DNA from: Pseudobdellovibrionaceae bacterium
GTDB lineage: Bacteria; Bdellovibrionota; Bdellovibrionia; Bdellovibrionales; UBA1609
Reading direction: 5' to 3'
DNA: 64,000 nucleotides
NCBI GenBank assembly: GCA_023954155.1
Contig: JAMLIO010000001.1
Span: 437,322-501,321 of the forward strand
Of the stretch, positions 31,468 to 44,013 are shown piece after piece. The translations under genes and the position numbers were made by a program. Positions within the stretch are counted from its first letter, which is position 1. Each line of letters opens with the position of its first letter. The notes below the pieces were generated by a model, which worked only from the letters and a program-made list of their open reading frames with translations, had not been told where the DNA came from and did not search any database.

Positions 31468-32355
31468 TCATTTTTGTAAATACACAACATCAATCTTATA
31501 TTTTTTATTTGTAGGAAAATTATCAGGATGTATGACAAGATTTAATCCGTCCAAAATAAAATTTGTAATTGTGACACCATCAATTTTTACTATGATTTCG
31601 CCTTTTGGTAGTACAGGAAGGGTAAATTCAGTTTTGGTGATTTGACCCACATCTTTGATTAAAGATTCAAAGTGGGGAGTCCAATCTGACTCGCAGATGT
31701 TAAAAATATTTCCGTTAGTGGCTTGAGCCAACTTGATATATTGTGATCCAGGGTTATCAATACAAGGGCTTATTTTTTTATCAATACCGATAAATCCAAA
31801 GATTTTAATATGTGCAAGATCTAAAAGTTTAGAAAGACCTAGTAAAAACACATTAGAACTGATCTCAGAATTGTCATCAGAGACAATGACAATGACTTTT
31901 TTAGAATCGAAACGAAGACTTTTCCCGATCATCTGTGGGAGTAGTTTTAAAAACTGAACCAATCCGTCGCGACTATTGATATACTGTACAATCTGTCTGT
32001 AGCCTCGTGACAGGGCCCACTCGCTTAAGGCCATCCCGTGCGAACCTTTGTTGTTTGTAATTAAAGTAAAGTTCAGTTTTGAACGGTCTTCAACGCTTAA
32101 TAAAAATTTTCCAATATTCTCACGGATGATTTGAATCTCTTCTACCATCGAGACAGAGTTGTCTACTACCCAAATCATATCTACGTTAGATGTAGTGTTG
32201 ATGTCTCTATCAAAGGAATAGACGACGGTTTCTGGAAGATCAATGCTATTGTCTTGGTCTTCTACGGATGTGCCGCTAAATTCAGTTTTACTGCATCCTG
32301 CAAAAATAAATAAAACGCTCATCATAATGATCAATGATTTTGATAGCACTTTCAT
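31468..32355 (-). CDS. lipoprotein with von Willebrand factor A-like domain
   Basis: Lipobox FAGC, a MIDAS-like DNSVSM (DxSxS), and VIVIVSDDNSE. Confidence 0.65.
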   Translation of the reverse strand: MKVLSKSLIIMMSVLFIFAGCSKTEFSGTSVEDQDNSIDLPETVVYSFDRDINTTSNVDMIWVVDNSVSMVEEIQIIRENIGKFLLSVEDRSKLNFTLITNNKGSHGMALSEWALSRGYRQIVQYINSRDGLVQFLKLLPQMIGKSLRFDSKKVIVIVSDDNSEISSNVFLLGLSKLLDLAHIKIFGFIGIDKKISPCIDNPGSQYIKLAQATNGNIFNICESDWTPHFESLIKDVGQITKTEFTLPVLPKGEIIVKIDGVTITNFILDGLNLVIHPDNFPTNKKYKIDVVYLQK

Positions 32356-32596
32356 GTTTACCTCGTGGCCTTTCTGGCTCCTACAAAGCTTTTAACGGAT
32401 TGCTATAGTCTTTGGTTGAGTCTAGTTTGGACAAAAGGAGAGGATGAGAATGTGCCATAGAGCTGGAACAAGCCCTAGGTCTAGGGAGCTATATGGAGTG
32501 GGTCTTAAGTTTGAATAAAAGTGTAAAACTATAACACAAATCTAAGCCTAAAAATCAGGCCTTGTTGAGGATAGGTAGTGTTACTAAAATGTTTTT

Positions 32597-34198
32597 ATGA
32601 AAGCTTTCCTCTTTTTTTTATTTACCTTTTTATTTGTGATTTCTAATTTACAAGCTGAAGAGCTGGGTCGTGGTGACACAGGCGACTCAGGTAGAAGTAC
32701 CCCAGCTCACAGAAGCAGTAATTCGCCCAGCCAAGATTTGCAGGATTTGGTCAGTCGAATCAATAGCTTTAAAGGCTGTTCAGATAAAGTGTGGCCAGGC
32801 ATGCAAATGCCAACGAGTGACATGGCGATTGTGGATGTGGATGGTTCCCGTTGGCGTATCCAAAATGGAAATTTAGTTCCCGCAACGGATTTGCCAGCAA
32901 AGATCAGCTTTAACGGAGGGTATGCAGTAAATAGCAATAAAACTCCACGAGAAGTTATACTAGGTTTACAAAATCTACAGCGCGAAAAAGAAATACGTGA
33001 ACAGATGGAGGCTGAGGCTCAAGAAGCCAAGACCACAGGACAAGAAATGCAAGATCCCTACGCTTCACCTCATGATTCTGCTTTATGTAAGCAACTCAGA
33101 GAAAAGTTTCGGAAACAAAACAAGAGCTTTGCCTCGAGTGGCTCAAGTCCTGAGCCCTCTTTGACAGATTCTGCATTCATGTTGGGTGTCCATGAGGGCT
33201 TTCATATTTGTGACCAAGAAGACAAATGGCACTATCAATCAAAAAAAGATAGTGGACCACGAAGGTCTGCCTACCCTGCGGTCACAGAGCCAAGGCAACT
33301 TCGGTATAAAACGAAACGCGCTTTGATGGAGGCCTTAAAAACTACAGACACCAGCCAACGTCAGAAGTATCTACAAGAAGCAGCGTACTGGCATAAACTC
33401 TATAAGTCTAAATACGGCGAGGGAAGTGCAAATCCAGAACCTCACGAAGCGACAGATATTATAGAGGGTTCAGCAAGGTATGTGGAGATTTTAGCTAATG
33501 CCGTAGATTGCAAAAAAGATATAAGCTCTACGGAGCTAGCCAAAATCAGTCGTAAGGCGATTTTGGATAATGTGGGTGTTTCACCTGAGGCCACTTACGA
33601 TATGGAGTCCTACAGTTTGGGAGCCTTAGCGGGCGCTTTATTAGATCAAAATCAAAAACAAAGTCCTGCATGGAAGATCAAATTAGAAAAGGACAAAGTG
33701 TCTGCCTTGGATCAGTTGTTAGGTCAGGTCAAACCACAGAGAGGAGCCTTGTCGGCAAAAGAGACTAAGGCCCTAGACGAAATTTCAGAGACACCATCAA
33801 AGGTGGCAGAAGAGTGTTATGCTAAACCCAACATGAGACAACTTGCAAATTATAAGAACGATGAATATGTATGGGTGTCTATCCCTACACAGGCATTTCG
33901 TGGCAAAGGATTTTATGATGGTTCGTCTGTGATTCCAGGAACGAGTTATGTAAACATTGATTCCTATGCCAGTGCGGGTGGTGTGGATGTCGAAAATCAA
34001 CCTTTGGTGCAACATCCAAGTAATCCTTGTGGAGCCACAGGAACCTTGATGGTTTTGGTCAAGAAGAGTTCCATTAAAGGCAATCAAGTGAATTATGATA
34101 ACTCTTCGGGACATCCTGCTGGCAAAGTATCGGGAACGATTAACCCGACGCCAAGATCTTCATCCTCATTGGGAACCGTTTACTGTGCCTCGAATTGA
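32597..34198 (+). CDS. secreted hypothetical protein with HEXXH motif (possible zinc metallopeptidase)
   Basis: 533 aa with a signal peptide (...SNLQA), HEGFH within MLGVHEGFHICD, and a possible downstream Glu ligand (IIEGSARYVE). Confidence 0.5.
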   Translation: MKAFLFFLFTFLFVISNLQAEELGRGDTGDSGRSTPAHRSSNSPSQDLQDLVSRINSFKGCSDKVWPGMQMPTSDMAIVDVDGSRWRIQNGNLVPATDLPAKISFNGGYAVNSNKTPREVILGLQNLQREKEIREQMEAEAQEAKTTGQEMQDPYASPHDSALCKQLREKFRKQNKSFASSGSSPEPSLTDSAFMLGVHEGFHICDQEDKWHYQSKKDSGPRRSAYPAVTEPRQLRYKTKRALMEALKTTDTSQRQKYLQEAAYWHKLYKSKYGEGSANPEPHEATDIIEGSARYVEILANAVDCKKDISSTELAKISRKAILDNVGVSPEATYDMESYSLGALAGALLDQNQKQSPAWKIKLEKDKVSALDQLLGQVKPQRGALSAKETKALDEISETPSKVAEECYAKPNMRQLANYKNDEYVWVSIPTQAFRGKGFYDGSSVIPGTSYVNIDSYASAGGVDVENQPLVQHPSNPCGATGTLMVLVKKSSIKGNQVNYDNSSGHPAGKVSGTINPTPRSSSSLGTVYCASN

Positions 34199-34328
34199 TA
34201 GCGAGTGATTAAGTAAGCTGACTTTGAGGGTGAGACATGAAGTCTGTGGTCATTTTCAGCTTGCTATTCCGCGTCCATGTGAAAGTCATGTTTTCAGCTC
34301 AGAGAAGCTAGTGTAAGCCCTTCCTTGT

Positions 34329-34949
34329 ATGTGGTTATTCAGGCTTGTGGCTATTGAACTTTTAATGTTGGGAGTAACGTCTTCGGCGTATGCCGTTGAA
34401 GTGGCGTTCTTTCGTCAGTATACGCCCTCAGGTCAACTTGTGGTTTATGAGGCTGGGGGAGAGTTTGCGCATGTGGCTCTCTCTTATCAGGGAAAGTGGC
34501 TGCATGCCCATCCTTATGGTGGTGTTCAGCTGTCTCATCATATTTATGAGATAGGTTTTTTAGATTATGTGATCCTCGAAAATAAAAATACACCTGAACC
34601 TACAGACATGTTTGTTCATACGCAGTTACAAAAGGGATTTGATATTTTTGCGCAGTGGACGGATGCAGGAAAAACATATTGCTCTAAATTGATTGCAGAA
34701 TTTTTTGGAATTCAGCCGCGTACAATGTACTTCATCTCTAAGGACTGGGTGGGTCACAATCCTCCGCGTGGTCAGTTAGGAATTTCACCTGATGATCTGT
34801 TTAAAGAGCTAATTGGTAAAAAAGGGTTTCAGATGAAGCCAGAGACAGGAGCACAAGGCGCAGTCAAAACTCACGATCGGTTGCTGACCAAGGCAGCGCC
34901 CCGCTCGCCACAAAAAAGAAAATGTGTAGGATACCTTACTAGTCAATAA
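34329..34949 (+). CDS. secreted hypothetical protein, possibly a permuted NlpC/P60 (YaeF/YiiX-like) hydrolase
   Basis: 206 aa with a signal peptide. A His (FAHVALSY) precedes a Cys (KTYCSKLIAEFF), as in permuted papain-like amidases. This is a weak call. Confidence 0.4.
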   Translation: MWLFRLVAIELLMLGVTSSAYAVEVAFFRQYTPSGQLVVYEAGGEFAHVALSYQGKWLHAHPYGGVQLSHHIYEIGFLDYVILENKNTPEPTDMFVHTQLQKGFDIFAQWTDAGKTYCSKLIAEFFGIQPRTMYFISKDWVGHNPPRGQLGISPDDLFKELIGKKGFQMKPETGAQGAVKTHDRLLTKAAPRSPQKRKCVGYLTSQ

Positions 34950-35463
34950 ATTTAATATGGTTCAGTGCTGTGGCTGTGACTTTATAATCGTTTTTATAAT
35001 TATTGGGCCGAGAGGTTTGCGATAAAAGAATCAAATCTTTTTTAACCTGATAAGCATAAACAAGAGTCACAAAAACTTGTCCCTTTTCTTTGGTGGTAAA
35101 AATATAGGTTTGTGTTCTGTACCCGTTGCTGCTTGTAAGTGGAGTTTTTTGTTTAAGAGAGGCTTTGTTTTTAAAGTATTTTTTATTTAAAAACATCTCA
35201 AGGTGATCGACCGTTTTGTTGTTGGGCATGGGTTGCTTAAGTACAAACATAGAAGGGACAAAGTCTTTTCCATTCTTGTTTAATAAACCTCTAAATTCAA
35301 AAACATCAAGGTTTTCCAATGTAGATGCGGTTTGTTTGGGTTGATAAGACCATCCAGGCATAACAGTTGAAAAGGTGGCATCTTGATTGGCGTGACCAGT
35401 AAGTGGGAGAGAAATCACAAGTGTAAATAATATCTTTGAAAGTAATCCTTGAAGTTTGTTCAT
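34939..35463 (-). CDS. secreted hypothetical protein
   Basis: 174 aa with a signal peptide (...PLTGHA). I recognise no family. Confidence 0.5.
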   Translation of the reverse strand: MNKLQGLLSKILFTLVISLPLTGHANQDATFSTVMPGWSYQPKQTASTLENLDVFEFRGLLNKNGKDFVPSMFVLKQPMPNNKTVDHLEMFLNKKYFKNKASLKQKTPLTSSNGYRTQTYIFTTKEKGQVFVTLVYAYQVKKDLILLSQTSRPNNYKNDYKVTATALNHIKFID

Positions 35464-35472
35464 ATTTTTTTC

Positions 35473-36036
35473 CTATTCAACAGTTGCTGAAGTGCTAAAG
35501 ACAGGAGATTTGATGTTATAAGTTTTTCCACTTTGGTGTTGGATGTCGATATCCATTTTCCCGCCAAATACTGAAGCGGTGGCTACAAGTTTTCCGTTTG
35601 GCTGTTTACATATTTGTGTGATGTTATGTTGACCCATGTCTGGAGTGGATAGGGCCAGCCCACCGCCTGCATCGACTAACTTATACTGTTTGCCACTATC
35701 AGTCGCACTGAAGGTGGCCTGTTTTCTCTCAACAATATCCTTGATACTCATTCCAGGAAGCGGAGCTAGCAAAGACAAATCGTTCCAACGAGAAATACAA
35801 ACGGGTCCTGTAGGTTTCTCTGGTTCTGGTTTAGATTCTGCAGCGGGAGCGCGCTCCTCCGTTTTTGTACTTGCGGGTGCGGTTTCCTCTTTGGGAGTCA
35901 CATCGGCAGACTTAGTGCTCAAATTTGGGATCTGAGTGTTGGGTTTCACTTGCGAAGACGAGCATCCTATCCATGCCAGTACGATAGCTGTTAAAATGCT
36001 AATACAAACGAGCTGTAATTTTGTTTTAGTTTTCAT
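35473..36036 (-). CDS. hypothetical lipoprotein
   Basis: 187 aa with lipobox WIGCSS and a Pro/Glu/Lys-rich linker. Confidence 0.55.
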   Translation of the reverse strand: MKTKTKLQLVCISILTAIVLAWIGCSSSQVKPNTQIPNLSTKSADVTPKEETAPASTKTEERAPAAESKPEPEKPTGPVCISRWNDLSLLAPLPGMSIKDIVERKQATFSATDSGKQYKLVDAGGGLALSTPDMGQHNITQICKQPNGKLVATASVFGGKMDIDIQHQSGKTYNIKSPVFSTSATVE

Positions 36037-36350
36037 CCCCGTTTTCCTCGGACCTTCTTCTCAAAGATTAAATTTATGCATTCGTTGGTCTTATCGGCTA
36101 TTTATGAGACGTCTAAAAGAGATTTTATTTATTTTTCTTACTTCAAGTAAATTTTTTTATGGATTTAAAATACAGATGTGGTGTCCTCTCAAAGCGTCTA
36201 TTTTTGATACATTTAGATGTCACTGTGTCCCAAGACGAGGCGTGATTTTATGCCTCTAGCCCACCCTAAATTTATTACCAAGTATGAGAGGATATTTGAC
36301 CAAAATAGGGCAAATGTTTAGGGTTGGTCCATCTTAAGAGGGGGAATTCC

Positions 36351-38642
36351 GTGCGGCAATTTTTGGGGGTATGGCTCTTATTCATGATGACCTGTTTTCA
36401 GGTTTCAGCTATGGATACGAAAGGACTTGAGGCGTGGTCTCAGGAGCTGATCGAGCAGCTGTATTCTAAGCATAAAGCTAAAGAGGTTTATATTGGCGGG
36501 GGAAGCTCCAGAGCCTTTTTAGACCATATTTTAAAAGGTAAGCCCTTGGTGTTTAGGGACCTCGATTTAGTTATAAACATGGATCGTGAGGTCACAAGAC
36601 AGATGGCCTTAGAAATGGGCCGAAGTCTACAATCAGAAACCGTTGGAGAGTTTTTAGAGCATGAACTGCGTCCTAGGCCTCGTACCAATCCCCAAAATCC
36701 AAAGGACTTTGGTTACAACGCAGGATATGGGTTTTTCTTTTTGCCAGCAGTGGCTCATCATCCCACTTTAGATTTAACGTTGATGCACTCTTATGAAGAT
36801 GTGAAGTTGAATGGGATTTTAGATGTGGACCGCGTGCGCATCTATATCCCGCAAGGGATGCGTATTACTGAGGTGGCTAGAAAGATTGTCAAACTGGGTT
36901 ACGAAGGGGCTTTTAGGGAAGGGCTTATTGATGATCCCTTTCGAGGTTACTTGTCTTGGGAGGCCTCTCGGATTCATATTGTTGAAAAGAATCAGTTGAG
37001 GCTTGATCCGCTCAACATCACTTTGAGAATTGTTCGTGGAGCTGCAAAAATGGAAGCCTTGCCTTTACCTGTGGCTGCTCGTGAAGCGATACAGTGGGCC
37101 TTTGCAGAGACTCCTAATGAGCTGAATCAGTTTCAGGGATTACGAAATTTTATGAAGCTTTTAGAAGACCCAGCCGTGACTCAGCAAATTCAAGAGCTGC
37201 ATAAGTTGGGCTTGCTAGAGCGTCTGTTGCCTCAGGCCTATGAACCTCTTTTGAAAATGAGTGAATCAGAGATCGCAGCTGCCCGTCGTAATTCGTATTC
37301 AAAAAATTTAGGATTTAATGTTTTGGCGACAGCTCTCAATGACACTCCTCCGCGTCAGCTTAAGGGTCTATTAAGTGACATGTATTTGATAGAGCCTAAG
37401 GGAACTTTAAATTTGATCGCTCAACTTAATGATTGGTTTGTGTCTGAGCCTCTGCGGATCGGATATTTTACAGGTGAATTTGCGCCCTTTCATCGGGGTC
37501 ATCGAAGTGTTGTTGAGGCCGCTCTTAAAAGTGATAAGTTGGATTTTGTGTTTGTCATTCCTACGCCACATGCCTCGAACAATCCGAAAACTCAAGTCTT
37601 CTCGGCACTGGAGTGGGAAGAGAGGTTGCGGTTTGTGGAATTGGGTTTAGAGGGTTTAAAGCAAGCCGCTGTTTTTCCTACAAAACGTGTTTTAGATACG
37701 GAGCGAAGTCATACCTTAAGCTCTGTTTTAAATTCTTTACAGCAATATTTAAAATCTCGTGATCCACTGACACATGTATTGGGTATGGACTCTTTGTACA
37801 GAGTGATTGACCGAGGGCTTTTAGATTCTGACCCTAGGCCTCGCCTTGTGGTAGCGCGAGCAGGTGTGCCACGTCCTCATCTGCCCTTTGATAGATACGA
37901 TATAAGTTTTGTTTCTGGTTTGGGTCATCCTGTTTCGGCGACGCAGATTTTACATAGTATGGCGATGGGACTTACGGTGAAAGACGCAGCTCCTAGTGTT
38001 GTCGCTCAAATTAAAAGCACCAAGAGGTATCAAGAAATTATAGAGAGTTATAAATCTTGGCGTGTAAAGTATGAAGAACTACTTATGCCTGCCAAGTCAC
38101 GTGCTAAAAAAACTTTGTTTGTCCATAATAGCATCAACTATGCGGGCAGTTATCAAGAAGGCCTAGAGAAACCGCCTCAATATCTGTTTGAGGCTACTGT
38201 GCGAACTTTGCAGACCTATAAGAATATTTCTGAAGTGGTGATTGTCATGTATGACCTACGGAGTTTGCGTGAAGAGTGGTTTTCTTTCAAAGCAGATTTA
38301 GATAAACTCTTTCCTAAGGTAGAGACTAAATTTGTGCGAGATGAGGCCAAGCATTATACCCCAGTAAATAAAAGAATAGAGGTTTTTCATGCAGGCGTGG
38401 CAAATGGGCTGATCTCTCACTTTCCCGATCACATGTATGGCAAATTAAGTAGTGGTGCTAGGTACGTGCTTTATGAATCTGGTAAAATCTATGCAAGCCC
38501 ACTGTTACAAGGGTTAGTGCAAGTAGACGTTTATACTGAGGATATGCTGAAACCAAAAAACTCTACAGAATCACATCCCTTAGACATCGTTCCACAAGCC
38601 GCGACCTCTCGTGGTAAAAGGTGTGTGGCGTTTTTACGCTGA
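36351..38642 (+). CDS. signal-peptide-bearing multidomain protein: PolB-type nucleotidyltransferase-like N-domain, NadD-like (HxGH) adenylyltransferase domain, unknown C-domain
   Basis: The GTG at 36351 lies 4 nt after the RBS aagaggggg(aa) and gives MRQFLGVWLLFMMTCFQVSA|MD. YIGGGSSRAFLDHIL...FRDLDLV resembles the CCA/polyA-polymerase head. GYFTGEFAPFHRGHRSVV plus VSATQIL resemble the NadD HxGH and ISSTxIR motifs. Confidence 0.7.
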   Translation: MRQFLGVWLLFMMTCFQVSAMDTKGLEAWSQELIEQLYSKHKAKEVYIGGGSSRAFLDHILKGKPLVFRDLDLVINMDREVTRQMALEMGRSLQSETVGEFLEHELRPRPRTNPQNPKDFGYNAGYGFFFLPAVAHHPTLDLTLMHSYEDVKLNGILDVDRVRIYIPQGMRITEVARKIVKLGYEGAFREGLIDDPFRGYLSWEASRIHIVEKNQLRLDPLNITLRIVRGAAKMEALPLPVAAREAIQWAFAETPNELNQFQGLRNFMKLLEDPAVTQQIQELHKLGLLERLLPQAYEPLLKMSESEIAAARRNSYSKNLGFNVLATALNDTPPRQLKGLLSDMYLIEPKGTLNLIAQLNDWFVSEPLRIGYFTGEFAPFHRGHRSVVEAALKSDKLDFVFVIPTPHASNNPKTQVFSALEWEERLRFVELGLEGLKQAAVFPTKRVLDTERSHTLSSVLNSLQQYLKSRDPLTHVLGMDSLYRVIDRGLLDSDPRPRLVVARAGVPRPHLPFDRYDISFVSGLGHPVSATQILHSMAMGLTVKDAAPSVVAQIKSTKRYQEIIESYKSWRVKYEELLMPAKSRAKKTLFVHNSINYAGSYQEGLEKPPQYLFEATVRTLQTYKNISEVVIVMYDLRSLREEWFSFKADLDKLFPKVETKFVRDEAKHYTPVNKRIEVFHAGVANGLISHFPDHMYGKLSSGARYVLYESGKIYASPLLQGLVQVDVYTEDMLKPKNSTESHPLDIVPQAATSRGKRCVAFLR

Positions 38643-41376: not shown

Positions 41377-44013
41377 ATGAGTGATAGCAGGTATATTTTT
41401 AGAGAGAGGGAAAAATTGGAAATAGAGGCAGTAAACCGCAACGCAAGAACTGAAAAGGCCACCACAAAACCAGTGGCTAAAAACGCAAAAACAATTCAAA
41501 AGAGAAACACTCAGTTTACGGATAGCTTTTCGGAAGAGATCTTCAATCTGACTTATAGATTTGGAAACGAAAATGATGTGAACGAACGTCATTTAAACGT
41601 GGCCAAAGACTTAGCCTCTGTGGAACGTCCTGAGCTGCAAGAGTATTGGACTGAGAAATTTTTAGACCTTTTAGAAGACTTTAAATTCGTCCCAGGGGGA
41701 AGAATCACGTCTAACGCAGGAACAGGCTTAAAGGGTACAACCTATATCAACTGCTTTGTCAGTGGCTTTAGAGGCGAAGACCAAGACTCTATGGTGAGCA
41801 TCATGGATGAGTTACGTCGTCAGGCTCTTATCTTAAAATCTGAAGGCGGATATGGGTTTTGTGCGGATGTGATGCGCCCTCGTGGAGCTTACGTAGAAGG
41901 CATTGGAGGGGACTCTCCAGGTGCTGTGAAATTATTAGAGATGTGGGACACGCAAAGTGCCGTGATCACTGCTGGCAGTGGTTTAAAGAAAAAGAATAAT
42001 AAGGGTAAGAAAAAAATCAGAAAAGGGGCCCAAATGGTCACCATGTCTGTTTACCACCCTGATATTGAAGAGTACATCACGGCAAAACAAACTCCAGGAC
42101 GCTTAACTAAATTCAATATGTCTCTCCTTGTTTCAGATGATTTTATGAAGGCCGTTGAAAACAATGAGCCATGGAATTTGGAATTTCCAAATTATGAGAC
42201 TGCGGCTGAAGAGTATAAAAAATATTGGAATGGCAATTTAAAAGAGTGGAAGTCTAAAGGCTTTCCTACTGTAGTTTATAAGACTTTTGCCAATGCGAAC
42301 GAATTGTGGGAGCTCATTATGAAGTCCACATACAATCGCAATGAACCAGGTATTTTATTTATTGATACCATCAACCGTTTGAATAACCTTTATTACACCG
42401 AGTACATCAACGCCACTAACCCTTGTGGAGAGCAAGTTTTACCTGTGGGTGGATGTTGCTTATTGGGTTCGATCAACTTAACTCAATTTGTAGATGTGAA
42501 AAAACAGAACTGGGACTATGACAAACTTAAAGAGATCATTCCTATTGCGGTTCGTTTTATGGACAACGTGAACGATAAAACTCAAGTTCCACTTCCAGAA
42601 CAGGAAGACAATCTACAACAAAAGCGTCGTATTGGTTTAGGGGTTTTGGGTTACGGCTCAGCGTTGATGATGCTTAAAGTGCGTTATGGTTCAGATAAAG
42701 CCATTGAACTTACAGAAGCTCTTGGTGAATTTATGATGAACGAGGCTTATAAATCTTCGGCCTTGATTGCCCAAGAAAAAGGAGCCTTTCCATTATTTGA
42801 TAAAGAAAAATATCTTGGTGGTGAATTTGTAAAGAAACTTAAACCCGAAACCAAAAAGCTTATTGAAAAGCACGGGACAAGAAATAGTCATCTTTTATCT
42901 ATTCAACCTACGGGCAACAGTTCAGTCTTTGCCAATAACGTGTCTGGCGGATTGGAGCCGTTATTCCTAGCGTCTTATACGCGCACATCCATGCAACCTT
43001 TTACACCAGAAGGAATGGGCGTTCCTAAAAACATCAACTGGGAAGCCAAAACCTACGATGTTGCTGGTCCTAAAACTGAATGGAAATGGGCTAAAGAAGG
43101 GGATGAAAGTATCCTAGTGACTGAGTTTAATGGTGAAGTGTGGAAGTACGATAACTCTCGCGGGCTTTTAAAAGAGTCTCGTATTCGAGATTACGCGGTA
43201 CGCTTTCACGAAGAGAACTCCACTTGGGAAGACAATGCGGACTGGGCCGCGACGTCTTTTAATTTAAATATTGATGACCATATCAAAACTATGGGTGTCT
43301 TTTCTAAATACATAGATTCGGCTATGTCAAAAACAGTAAATATTCCTGCTGACTACCCTTACGAAGACTTTAAACGTCTTTACTATGAGGTGTATAAGAC
43401 AGGAACTATTAAGGGCTGTACATCTTATCGTGAAGGCACAATGACTGCGGTCTTATCCTCTACAAGTACAGCTGCAGGAGCTAACGAGATCGTTAAAGGT
43501 GTGCCAAGAACTAAGGCCACTCCAAGACCAGACATTTTAGACTGCGATATTCACCAGATCACCAGCGCAGGCGAAAAGTGGGTGGTGATTGTAGGGCTAT
43601 TGGACAATGACCCGTATGAGGTTTTTGCCATGAAACAAAGTCGCTTGCATTTGCCTAAGCATTTGACTCATGGAAAATTGATCAAAGAAAAATCGGGTCT
43701 TTATGTTTTGGAAACCAAAGATGGTTGGGTTCTTCGTGATATCAGAAACTTTTTTGAATCTGATGAGCAAGAAGCACTCACGCGTATGATTTCCACAGCA
43801 CTTAGACATGGGGCTGATATTGAATTTATCGTATCGCAACTGATCAAGAGTGAAGGGAACATCACTTCTTTCTCTAAAGCGATTGCGCGTACGTTAAAGA
43901 AATACATCACTGAAATCACAACTATGAAGTGTACGGCTTGTGAAAGCCAAAACATCAAGCTGCAAGAAGGGTGTTTTGTGTGCATGGATTGTGGCAGCAG
44001 CAAGTGCGAATAG
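41377..44013 (+). CDS. nrdJ: class II (adenosylcobalamin-dependent) ribonucleotide reductase
   Basis: 878 aa with TNPCGEQVLP..GGCCLLGSINL and a C-terminal zinc ribbon CTACES...CFVCMDCGSSKC. The start is uncertain: a TTG at about 41414 follows a gagaggga RBS. Confidence 0.93.
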   Translation: MSDSRYIFREREKLEIEAVNRNARTEKATTKPVAKNAKTIQKRNTQFTDSFSEEIFNLTYRFGNENDVNERHLNVAKDLASVERPELQEYWTEKFLDLLEDFKFVPGGRITSNAGTGLKGTTYINCFVSGFRGEDQDSMVSIMDELRRQALILKSEGGYGFCADVMRPRGAYVEGIGGDSPGAVKLLEMWDTQSAVITAGSGLKKKNNKGKKKIRKGAQMVTMSVYHPDIEEYITAKQTPGRLTKFNMSLLVSDDFMKAVENNEPWNLEFPNYETAAEEYKKYWNGNLKEWKSKGFPTVVYKTFANANELWELIMKSTYNRNEPGILFIDTINRLNNLYYTEYINATNPCGEQVLPVGGCCLLGSINLTQFVDVKKQNWDYDKLKEIIPIAVRFMDNVNDKTQVPLPEQEDNLQQKRRIGLGVLGYGSALMMLKVRYGSDKAIELTEALGEFMMNEAYKSSALIAQEKGAFPLFDKEKYLGGEFVKKLKPETKKLIEKHGTRNSHLLSIQPTGNSSVFANNVSGGLEPLFLASYTRTSMQPFTPEGMGVPKNINWEAKTYDVAGPKTEWKWAKEGDESILVTEFNGEVWKYDNSRGLLKESRIRDYAVRFHEENSTWEDNADWAATSFNLNIDDHIKTMGVFSKYIDSAMSKTVNIPADYPYEDFKRLYYEVYKTGTIKGCTSYREGTMTAVLSSTSTAAGANEIVKGVPRTKATPRPDILDCDIHQITSAGEKWVVIVGLLDNDPYEVFAMKQSRLHLPKHLTHGKLIKEKSGLYVLETKDGWVLRDIRNFFESDEQEALTRMISTALRHGADIEFIVSQLIKSEGNITSFSKAIARTLKKYITEITTMKCTACESQNIKLQEGCFVCMDCGSSKCE

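Follow-up and report, generated by a model that had tools for sequence, protein, structure and literature searches.

A predicted exported fusion of two nucleotidyltransferase-like domains with a lone-cysteine tail in Pseudobdellovibrionaceae

The window analysed here is a stretch of 64,000 nucleotides from a metagenome-assembled genome (MAG) of Pseudobdellovibrionaceae (assembly GCA_023954155.1, contig JAMLIO010000001.1, positions 437,322 to 501,321), and all coordinates refer to it. A gene on its plus strand, at 36351-38642, encodes a 763-residue protein in which a predicted Sec-type signal peptide is followed by a divergent CCA-adding/poly(A)-polymerase-like head, a NadD-like adenylyltransferase domain, an orphan Rossmann-like domain and a short disordered tail with a single cysteine. 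The prediction of an exported protein, in a predatory lineage, whose two sites for nucleotidyl transfer are intact and have folds of known type is well supported. More tentatively, I take the product to be a two-site nucleotidyltransferase which a Bdellovibrio-like bacterium would export and which would use prey nucleotides, a reading to which I give slightly less than an even chance. Nucleotidyltransferases are regarded as cytoplasmic enzymes, needing nucleoside triphosphates (NTPs), and if two of them are joined in a conserved protein that a predatory lineage exports by Sec, this would imply chemistry in the prey compartment. The protein would also be a concrete candidate for the means by which Bdellovibrio-like bacteria exploit, or interfere with, the nucleotide and NAD pools of their prey.

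Results

The open reading frame (ORF) spans 36324, a TTG codon, to 38642, and the 763-residue product results from the in-frame GTG at 36351. This GTG is preceded, with a spacer of 6 nucleotides, by AGAGGGGG, and direct reading places the Shine-Dalgarno-like element GAGGGGG at 36338..36344 on the plus strand. The public gene calls start further downstream: the identical protein in NCBI and ENA (P0001, 743 residues) was given a start at M21, and MCO5112973.1 (752 residues), from a Pseudobdellovibrionaceae/Bdellovibrionaceae MAG and labelled 'adenylyltransferase/cytidyltransferase family protein', a start at M12, while no comparable Shine-Dalgarno site can be read before either ATG. Both public starts lose the hydrophobic N-terminus, and thereby hide the export signal. 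The ribosome-binding site and the homologues, which carry equivalent N-termini, support the GTG at 36351 as the probable true start, as a preliminary description of this gene had proposed, and the public calls presumably begin too late. With 17 homologues in a word-index search and about 25 full-length representatives in a hidden Markov model (HMM) search, the ORF is, on this comparative evidence, real and not a chance reading frame.

The predicted signal peptide comprises residues 1-20, MRQFLGVWLLFMMTCFQVSA, followed by MD (36351..36410, plus strand). It has the n/h/c layout of a type I signal, with one basic residue in the n-region (R2), an uncharged core of 13 residues, FLGVWLLFMMTCF, which falls within the 7-15 residues expected of the h-region, the small-x-small sequence V-S-A before M21, and no lipobox; about 28 homologues are alike in these respects. 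Equivalent signal peptides are present in P0002, P0003, P0005, P0006, P0008, P0010 and P0012-P0026. Among homologues with 28-52% identity the N-termini are unrelated in sequence, yet nearly all show the matching layout, in which 1-3 basic residues lead into an uncharged stretch of 8-19 (median about 13) that is closed by an AxA-like site (ASA then ME, ARA then D, ALA then N, AFA then QD, AYA then QT). It is on this comparison, a signal layout kept despite unrelated N-terminal sequences, that the case for export rests most. More distant proteins of the head family also carry signal peptides, and one distant relative, P0029, has the lipobox LIASC in place of the type I site. A lipoprotein reading of Cys15 in the present protein was rejected, as MMTC is not a lipobox and Cys15 is not conserved in homologues.

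The predicted export of the protein by Sec is thus well supported, and the classical signal peptide of the preliminary description is confirmed by its n/h/c layout, its VSA site and its conservation in Bdellovibrionota homologues. A membrane anchor, which had been offered as the alternative, is disfavoured by the short core (median about 13), the conserved AxA-type sites and the positive n-region. As the n-region is positive and the core short, the C-terminal part is predicted to lie outside the cytoplasm whether or not the signal is cleaved, and beyond the signal peptide there is no other hydrophobic segment (the highest mean Kyte-Doolittle value over any 19-residue window is 1.0). A cytoplasmic enzyme, translated from a downstream ATG or held by an uncleaved anchor, and amounting to a housekeeping NadD made unusual by its fusion to a CCA-like domain, would agree with the NCBI and ENA starts at M12 and M21 and with the normal dependence of nucleotidyltransferases on cytoplasmic NTPs. 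I consider this very improbable indeed, since the ribosome-binding site lies before the GTG and none lies before the ATGs, since signal-like N-termini are kept across homologues whose N-terminal sequences are unrelated, and since the positive n-region and short h-region place the C-terminal part outside. Also against it are the 33 bits of the NadD-like domain, to be compared with NadD equivalog cut-offs of 112-187, and the lone-cysteine tail described below, which is common to other signal-peptide proteins and absent from signal-less relatives.

An AlphaFold2 (AF2) model of the protein, built from a 13-sequence family alignment, reaches a mean predicted local distance difference test score (pLDDT) of 85.2 and a predicted template modelling score of 0.75. 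Residues 22-361 (36414..37433, plus strand) form a divergent nucleotidyltransferase resembling the class II CCA-adding enzymes and poly(A) polymerases, as judged from Foldseek, profile searches and motifs, and comprise a catalytic head, a neck and a helical body (residues 166-361). Against the PDB, Foldseek aligned this N-terminal part over 340-380 columns to class II tRNA nucleotidyltransferases at E about 1e-6, with matches to the Aquifex A-adding (4wc2 and 1vfg) and CC-adding (3wfo to 3wfs) enzymes and the Thermotoga CCA-adding 3h37. A profile of 23 diverse heads matched the PDB via the neck (3h37, E 8.6e-7; 3wfo, E 6.8e-5; 1miv, E 0.0087), with the 'DPxxxxxRxxRxxxK' of the heads aligned with 'DDPTRILRAIRF', and gave E 0.17 against E. 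coli poly(A) polymerase 3aqm. The CCA-adding/polyA-polymerase-like head that had been proposed earlier is borne out by the Foldseek matches and by the profile match to 3h37.

The motifs of this region are GGGSS (49-53), RDLDLV (69-74), LRPRPR (106-111), D141, LNG (153-155) and DPLNITLRIVR (219-229). G50/G51, D70, D72 and D141 are invariant in the family alignment, and the G and the DxD are invariant across the 23 diverse heads; with the G, the DxD and the third Asp all invariant, the metal-binding site is predicted to be intact. The DP of motif D is kept as well (D219, P220). Between the DxD strand and the strand of the third Asp a beta-hairpin is inserted, which carries an invariant LRxRPR (LRPRPR here). 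No Pfam match to a catalytic domain (PolyA_pol) was obtained for the head of the window protein or for the 23 diverse heads, and PolyA_pol_RNAbd was matched only below threshold (E 0.04-0.11) in 3 of the 23. On this evidence the head belongs to the class II superfamily, as a divergent branch that has not been curated.

The NadD/NMNAT-like adenylyltransferase domain occupies residues 362-571 (37434..38063, plus strand). It matches Pfam PF01467 (CTP_transf_like) at E 1.4e-4, the NCBIfam NadD models, and the PDB NadD 1yul in sequence at E 7.7e-5. Foldseek retrieves the NadD structures 1kaq, 3e27 and 5deo with target-normalised template modelling scores (TM-scores) of 0.73-0.78 and E about 1e-6, and a profile specific to the domain, run against the PDB, finds, among nucleotidyltransferases, NadD/NMNAT chains only, apart from a weak match to phosphopantetheine adenylyltransferase (PPAT), E about 0.9. 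The middle domain of the preliminary description is therefore NadD-like as claimed, and the two motifs given for it, FHRGH and VSATQIL, lie at residues 380-384 and 528-534, alongside GMDS (478-481) and RPRLVV (496-501). Conserved across the family are GYFTGEFAPF(H/T)xGH, IPTP..N.PK, G(M/A)DS, RPR(I/L)VV.R.G and [IV]S(A/S)T.(I/L)L, and the NadD-type C-terminal helix P..V..I....Y is also kept. G383, H384, G478, D480 and S529 are invariant, S529, A530 and T531 are conserved in VSATQIL, and in two members T takes the place of H381. To judge from its motifs and scores, the domain would be an HxGH adenylyltransferase of the NadD type and not an orthologous NadD.

Given such a head, the protein might also be an exported macromolecule-modifying toxin, which extends the 3' ends of prey tRNA or other RNA (MenT-like) or nucleotidylylates prey proteins (GlnE/DrrA-like), with the NadD-like and C-terminal domains binding or positioning nucleotides instead of producing NAD. 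The alignment to tRNA nucleotidyltransferases over 340-380 columns, which includes the neck and the body, speaks for it, as do the conserved basic LRPRPR hairpin and a weak match to GlnD at residues 204-295 among the NCBIfam models. The whole protein is basic (isoelectric point about 9; neck and body about 8-9), which is compatible with binding of nucleotides or nucleic acids but decides nothing. Such a toxin is nevertheless quite unlikely: the head has no recognisable tRNA-binding tail, the class II nucleotide-selecting residues are altered, the PADLOC defence and toxin models gave no match, and the strict conservation of H/TxGH argues for catalysis at the NadD-like site too.

The preliminary description had left a single C-terminal domain of 220 residues unassigned. 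The lack of an assignment stands; the single domain does not, as this part rather consists of a folded domain of about 165 residues and a disordered tail of 27. The folded part, residues 572-736 (38064..38558, plus strand), is an orphan Rossmann-like alpha/beta domain according to its AF2 model and conserved residues, which include G599 and an H680-x-G682-x-x-N685 motif. Modelled separately it has a pLDDT of 83, and its best Foldseek matches are weak, with NadD 5deo (E 6.6e-4, TM-score 0.47) followed by PPAT, and with further weak PDB matches to the Rossmann domains of lactate dehydrogenase and 6-phospho-alpha-glucosidase (GlvA-type). A Pfam search of the domain gave no match, and in an exhaustive search of 1.84 billion cluster representatives it was confined to the protein's own family. 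The idea that it is a degenerate copy of the NadD-like domain found no support, as hhalign against the protein's own NadD-like domain gave a probability below 1%.

The tail comprises residues 737-763 (38559..38639, plus strand; pLDDT about 30) and ends in GKRCVAFLR. Cys758 (nucleotides 38622-38624), five residues from the end, is the sole cysteine of the mature protein, the other one being Cys15 in the signal peptide; the lone-cysteine tail had no part in the earlier account of the protein. In a sample of 27 family members with complete C-termini, all 27 have a cysteine within the last 25 residues, and 22 have no other cysteine in the mature chain. Their 19,337 mature residues include 32 cysteines (a content of 0.17%), of which 27 lie in the tails; the binomial P for this is about 1e-34, a value that is indicative only, as the sequences are related. 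The depletion of cysteine together with the single one in the tail may be read as exported-type rather than cytoplasmic cysteine usage.

The tail is present whichever domain comes last. It follows the orphan domain in most members, the alpha/beta hydrolase in P0016, the NadD-like domain in P0017, P0029, P0031, P0036 and P0053, and the head in the order-swapped P0007, P0011, P0046 and P0175, whereas it is missing from the signal-less relatives P0067, P0076, P0085 and P0094, which have 13-17 cysteines. Similar tails are found on unrelated signal-peptide proteins of the Bdellovibrionota, with the cysteine 4-18 residues from the C-terminus and a pattern of roughly [basic/S]-C-x-x-hydrophobic-[F/L] plus 0-14 residues. 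Two of these proteins are encoded close to the gene under study. An unrelated secreted protein (34329..34949, plus strand), whose distant homologues match Pfam PF05708 (YiiX-like permuted papain fold), ends in KRKCVGYLTSQ, and its homologues end in RRCVRFLNL, RRCDRFLSATLL, PRCLAYLRS, PRCVLHLR and, in Bdt_1528 of B. bacteriovorus Tiberius, NRCEKLFVP; a secreted protein of 533 residues (32597-34198, plus strand) ends in VYCASN. Further exported proteins with tails of this kind are P0135, P0146, P0150 and P0155. Ten tails compared with NCBIfam, including its known C-terminal sorting domains, gave no match at E up to 10, and in the literature on C-terminal cysteine or sorting signals in Bdellovibrio I found no description of such a tail.

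The full-length family is rare. A word-index search of 5.8 billion proteins found 17 homologues, and about 25 full-length members were recovered by an exhaustive HMM search of the 1.84 billion cluster representatives, along with about 100 proteins that carry the head (101 matches at E <= 1e-30). Among the 185,579 species representatives of GTDB, scanned with patterns specific to the subfamily of the present protein, there was one matching locus, in a Pseudobdellovibrionaceae MAG. A word-index search with the head profile returned four proteins only, so that no cultivated strain with the head family could be named. A protein 100% identical to the present one is found, with its neighbours, on three metagenome contigs (L001-L003), one of which is labelled 'Nepal...Hadza-Nepal' and is apparently of human gut origin; the same or a near-identical Pseudobdellovibrionaceae genome occurs in such samples.

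The head occurs alone, in proteins of about 330-400 residues, or in fusions. Its partners are a canonical NadD-like domain (SSTxIR) with or without Ham1/ITPase, HIT-like and alpha/beta hydrolase domains, a pyruvate-kinase barrel, an APH/choline-kinase domain and an alcohol-dehydrogenase domain; elsewhere they are thus mostly nucleotide-handling (NadD-like, Ham1/ITPase, HIT). In the signal-less P0094, from a Chlamydiota MAG, local HMMs detect a head and a NadD-like domain only, so that this core without a signal peptide is present in at least one MAG of that phylum. The order of the domains also varies: in P0007 and P0011 a helical linker, the NadD-like domain and the orphan domain precede the CCA-like head, and in P0046 and P0175 the NadD-like domain precedes the head. 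As these four proteins keep both the signal peptide and the cysteine tail, the modules appear to have been shuffled while the terminal signals remained fixed. Outside these architectures, P0146 is an exported protein with an N-terminal region that by eye resembles SelO, followed by a NadD-like domain and a cysteine tail, and P0150 is an exported NadD-like protein with a cysteine tail and a partner that by eye resembles a metallophosphatase. The NadD-like domain is of the canonical type in both, as it is in P0155, a further exported multidomain protein with a different partner and the cysteine tail. Export of NadD-like domains thus seems to recur among these sequences.

No neighbouring gene is shared among the seven loci compared, which come from different homologues. 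As the neighbours differ at every locus examined, the gene appears to stand alone, without operon partners, and no linked transporter gene was seen. In the window, the five consecutive genes 5' of it (31468-36036) encode signal-peptide or lipoprotein-like products, none with a Pfam match, at 31468-32355 (minus strand), 32597-34198 (plus), 34329-34949 (plus), 34939-35463 (minus) and 35473-36036 (minus), and this stretch resembles a small island of uncharacterised exported proteins. A search of the window for Rfam families and tRNAs found none. Further downstream, a ribonucleotide reductase (Ribonuc_red_lgC and TSCPD; 41377-44013, plus strand) is encoded by a single ORF of 878 codons, whereas on contig L001 (9458-12093) the same enzyme is split into two overlapping genes of 452 and 426 residues, which a frameshift or an assembly difference may explain.

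Discussion

On the reading that the protein is a two-site nucleotidyltransferase, exported and drawing on prey nucleotides, it would be translocated by Sec, cleaved after VSA, and would act beyond the cytoplasm of its producer. The place of action would be the periplasm of the predator and, with greater probability, the compartment of the invaded prey, which would supply ATP or other NTPs and mononucleotides. The NadD-like site would adenylylate a phosphorylated mononucleotide of the nicotinamide or nicotinate mononucleotide (NMN/NaMN) type, or catalyse the reverse reaction, and the CCA-like site would move a nucleoside monophosphate to the 3'-OH of an acceptor, which would be a nucleotide or the end of an RNA. 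Overall, the nucleotide and NAD pool of the prey would be remodelled or harvested, while the tail cysteine could serve in covalent tethering, disulfide pairing or sorting after export. The host being a Pseudobdellovibrionaceae MAG, the sole GTDB match lying in the same family and a signal-less relative occurring in at least one MAG of Chlamydiota, which likewise live inside other cells, all lend support to the idea of a predator enzyme or effector, which the preliminary description had raised. The literature on exported NadD and on NAD or NMN in Bdellovibrio held nothing relevant.

A more far-reaching version gives the tail a larger role. The cysteine tail may be an undescribed post-Sec sorting, tethering or redox-release signal of the Bdellovibrionota that marks prey-directed proteins, the present protein may be a prey-delivered enzyme that spends prey ATP on rewriting RNA 3' ends, NAD-type dinucleotides or both, and its head may represent a new effector family of bacteria that live inside other cells (Bdellovibrionota, Chlamydiota). 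I regard this combination as possible but doubtful.

A Sec signal alone predicts a periplasmic location only, and the evidence for export is therefore shared by an alternative in which the protein is a salvage enzyme that stays in the predator periplasm or on the predator envelope, perhaps tethered by its cysteine. It would convert leaked prey nucleotides for import (NMN/NaMN + ATP to NAD, or NAD + pyrophosphate (PPi) to NMN + ATP) and would not be an effector that harms the prey. The reversibility of the NMNAT reaction, which is established biochemistry, suits this explanation, as do the relatives in Chlamydiota, bacteria that import host nucleotides and NAD. However, it leaves the role of the CCA-like head unexplained, no linked transporter gene was seen, and ATP and PPi would still be needed from the prey; I find it unlikely.

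Several points weigh against the reading of the protein as a prey-directed nucleotidyltransferase. In the head, the Arg of the nucleotide-selecting motif EDxxR is absent, aligning to Leu/Asn or a gap against 3h37, and by my reading the RR of the RRD motif appears to be absent too; with the Arg missing, the NTP and the acceptor of the head cannot be assigned from its sequence. The NadD-like domain scores 32-33 bits (E 4.6e-8) with the NCBIfam models, whose curated equivalog cut-offs are 112 bits (TIGR00482) and 187 bits (NF000839). The Arg of ISSTxIR is replaced by Leu and the SYTxDT region is missing, although more distant head-linked NadD-like domains retain SSTxIR; these losses, together with the scores below cut-off, suggest that NMN/NaMN may not be the substrate. 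The predatory lifestyle of the MAG is assumed from taxonomy only, and the activity, the substrates and the location of the protein are all predicted ones.

The same degenerate substrate-contact motifs (EDxxR, ISSTxIR and SYTxDT), and the presence of a C-terminal Rossmann-like domain without a catalytic signature, could point to a pseudoenzyme or scaffold, an exported nucleotide binder that acts as a sensor or sequestering factor without transfer chemistry. This is very unlikely, as the DxD with the third Asp and the H/TxGH are invariant at about 30% identity, which is hard to explain without catalysis.

Comparison with known systems

The novelty of the protein lies in known folds that are combined with an uncurated head family, in an unusual export context and possibly in a new cysteine tag. 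Like the class II tRNA nucleotidyltransferases and poly(A) polymerase, it has a Pol-beta head with GG[ST], DxD and a third Asp, followed by a helical body, and the D-P-x(5)-R-x-x-R of the family aligns with the DP..LRAxRF neck motif of the CCA-adding-related 3h37 from Thermotoga maritima. Unlike these enzymes, it is predicted to be exported and is fused to other enzymes, carries the inserted LRPRPR hairpin, lacks the Arg of EDxxR, and has a head without a Pfam match and without a recognisable tRNA-binding tail. This head constitutes an uncurated domain family with about 100 cluster representatives, recurring with NadD-like, Ham1, HIT, kinase and hydrolase partners.

With NadD/NMNAT (TIGR00482, PF01467) the middle domain shares the Rossmann-type HIGH-family fold and the motifs GxFxPxHxGH, G(M/A)D, RxG and [IV]S[AS]TxI. 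It differs from NadD in being embedded in a putatively exported protein of 763 residues, in having Leu for the Arg of ISSTxIR, and in the loss of SYTxDT. The fusion of an NMNAT-type domain to a nucleotide-processing domain recalls NadR (NMNAT with ribosylnicotinamide kinase) and NadM-Nudix, to which there are weak NCBIfam matches; these are cytoplasmic proteins, whereas the present protein has other partners, a predicted signal peptide and a cysteine tail.

By concept only, the protein resembles DrrA/SidM, MenT/AbiEii and SelO, as a nucleotidyltransferase that would use the NTPs of a target cell. DrrA/SidM of Legionella and the SelO proteins are AMPylators, and MenT/AbiEii are tRNA nucleotidyltransferase toxins. 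There is no sequence or profile similarity to any of them (DrrA/SidM has a GlnE-like nucleotidyltransferase fold), and the predicted route is Sec and not a type IV secretion system or a toxin-antitoxin system.

The lone-cysteine tail, finally, resembles the PEP-CTERM, GlyGly-CTERM, MYXO-CTERM and LPXTG signals and the C-terminal domain of the type IX secretion system, in being a short C-terminal tag, independent of the preceding domain, on unrelated signal-peptide proteins of one lineage. Unlike those sorting signals it has only 4-18 residues after the cysteine, with no transmembrane helix and no basic cluster. The cysteine of MYXO-CTERM is found at the putative processing point or close to it, as is that of the tail described here. 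This tail, which cultivated B. bacteriovorus has as well, could represent a new signal for sorting or tethering.

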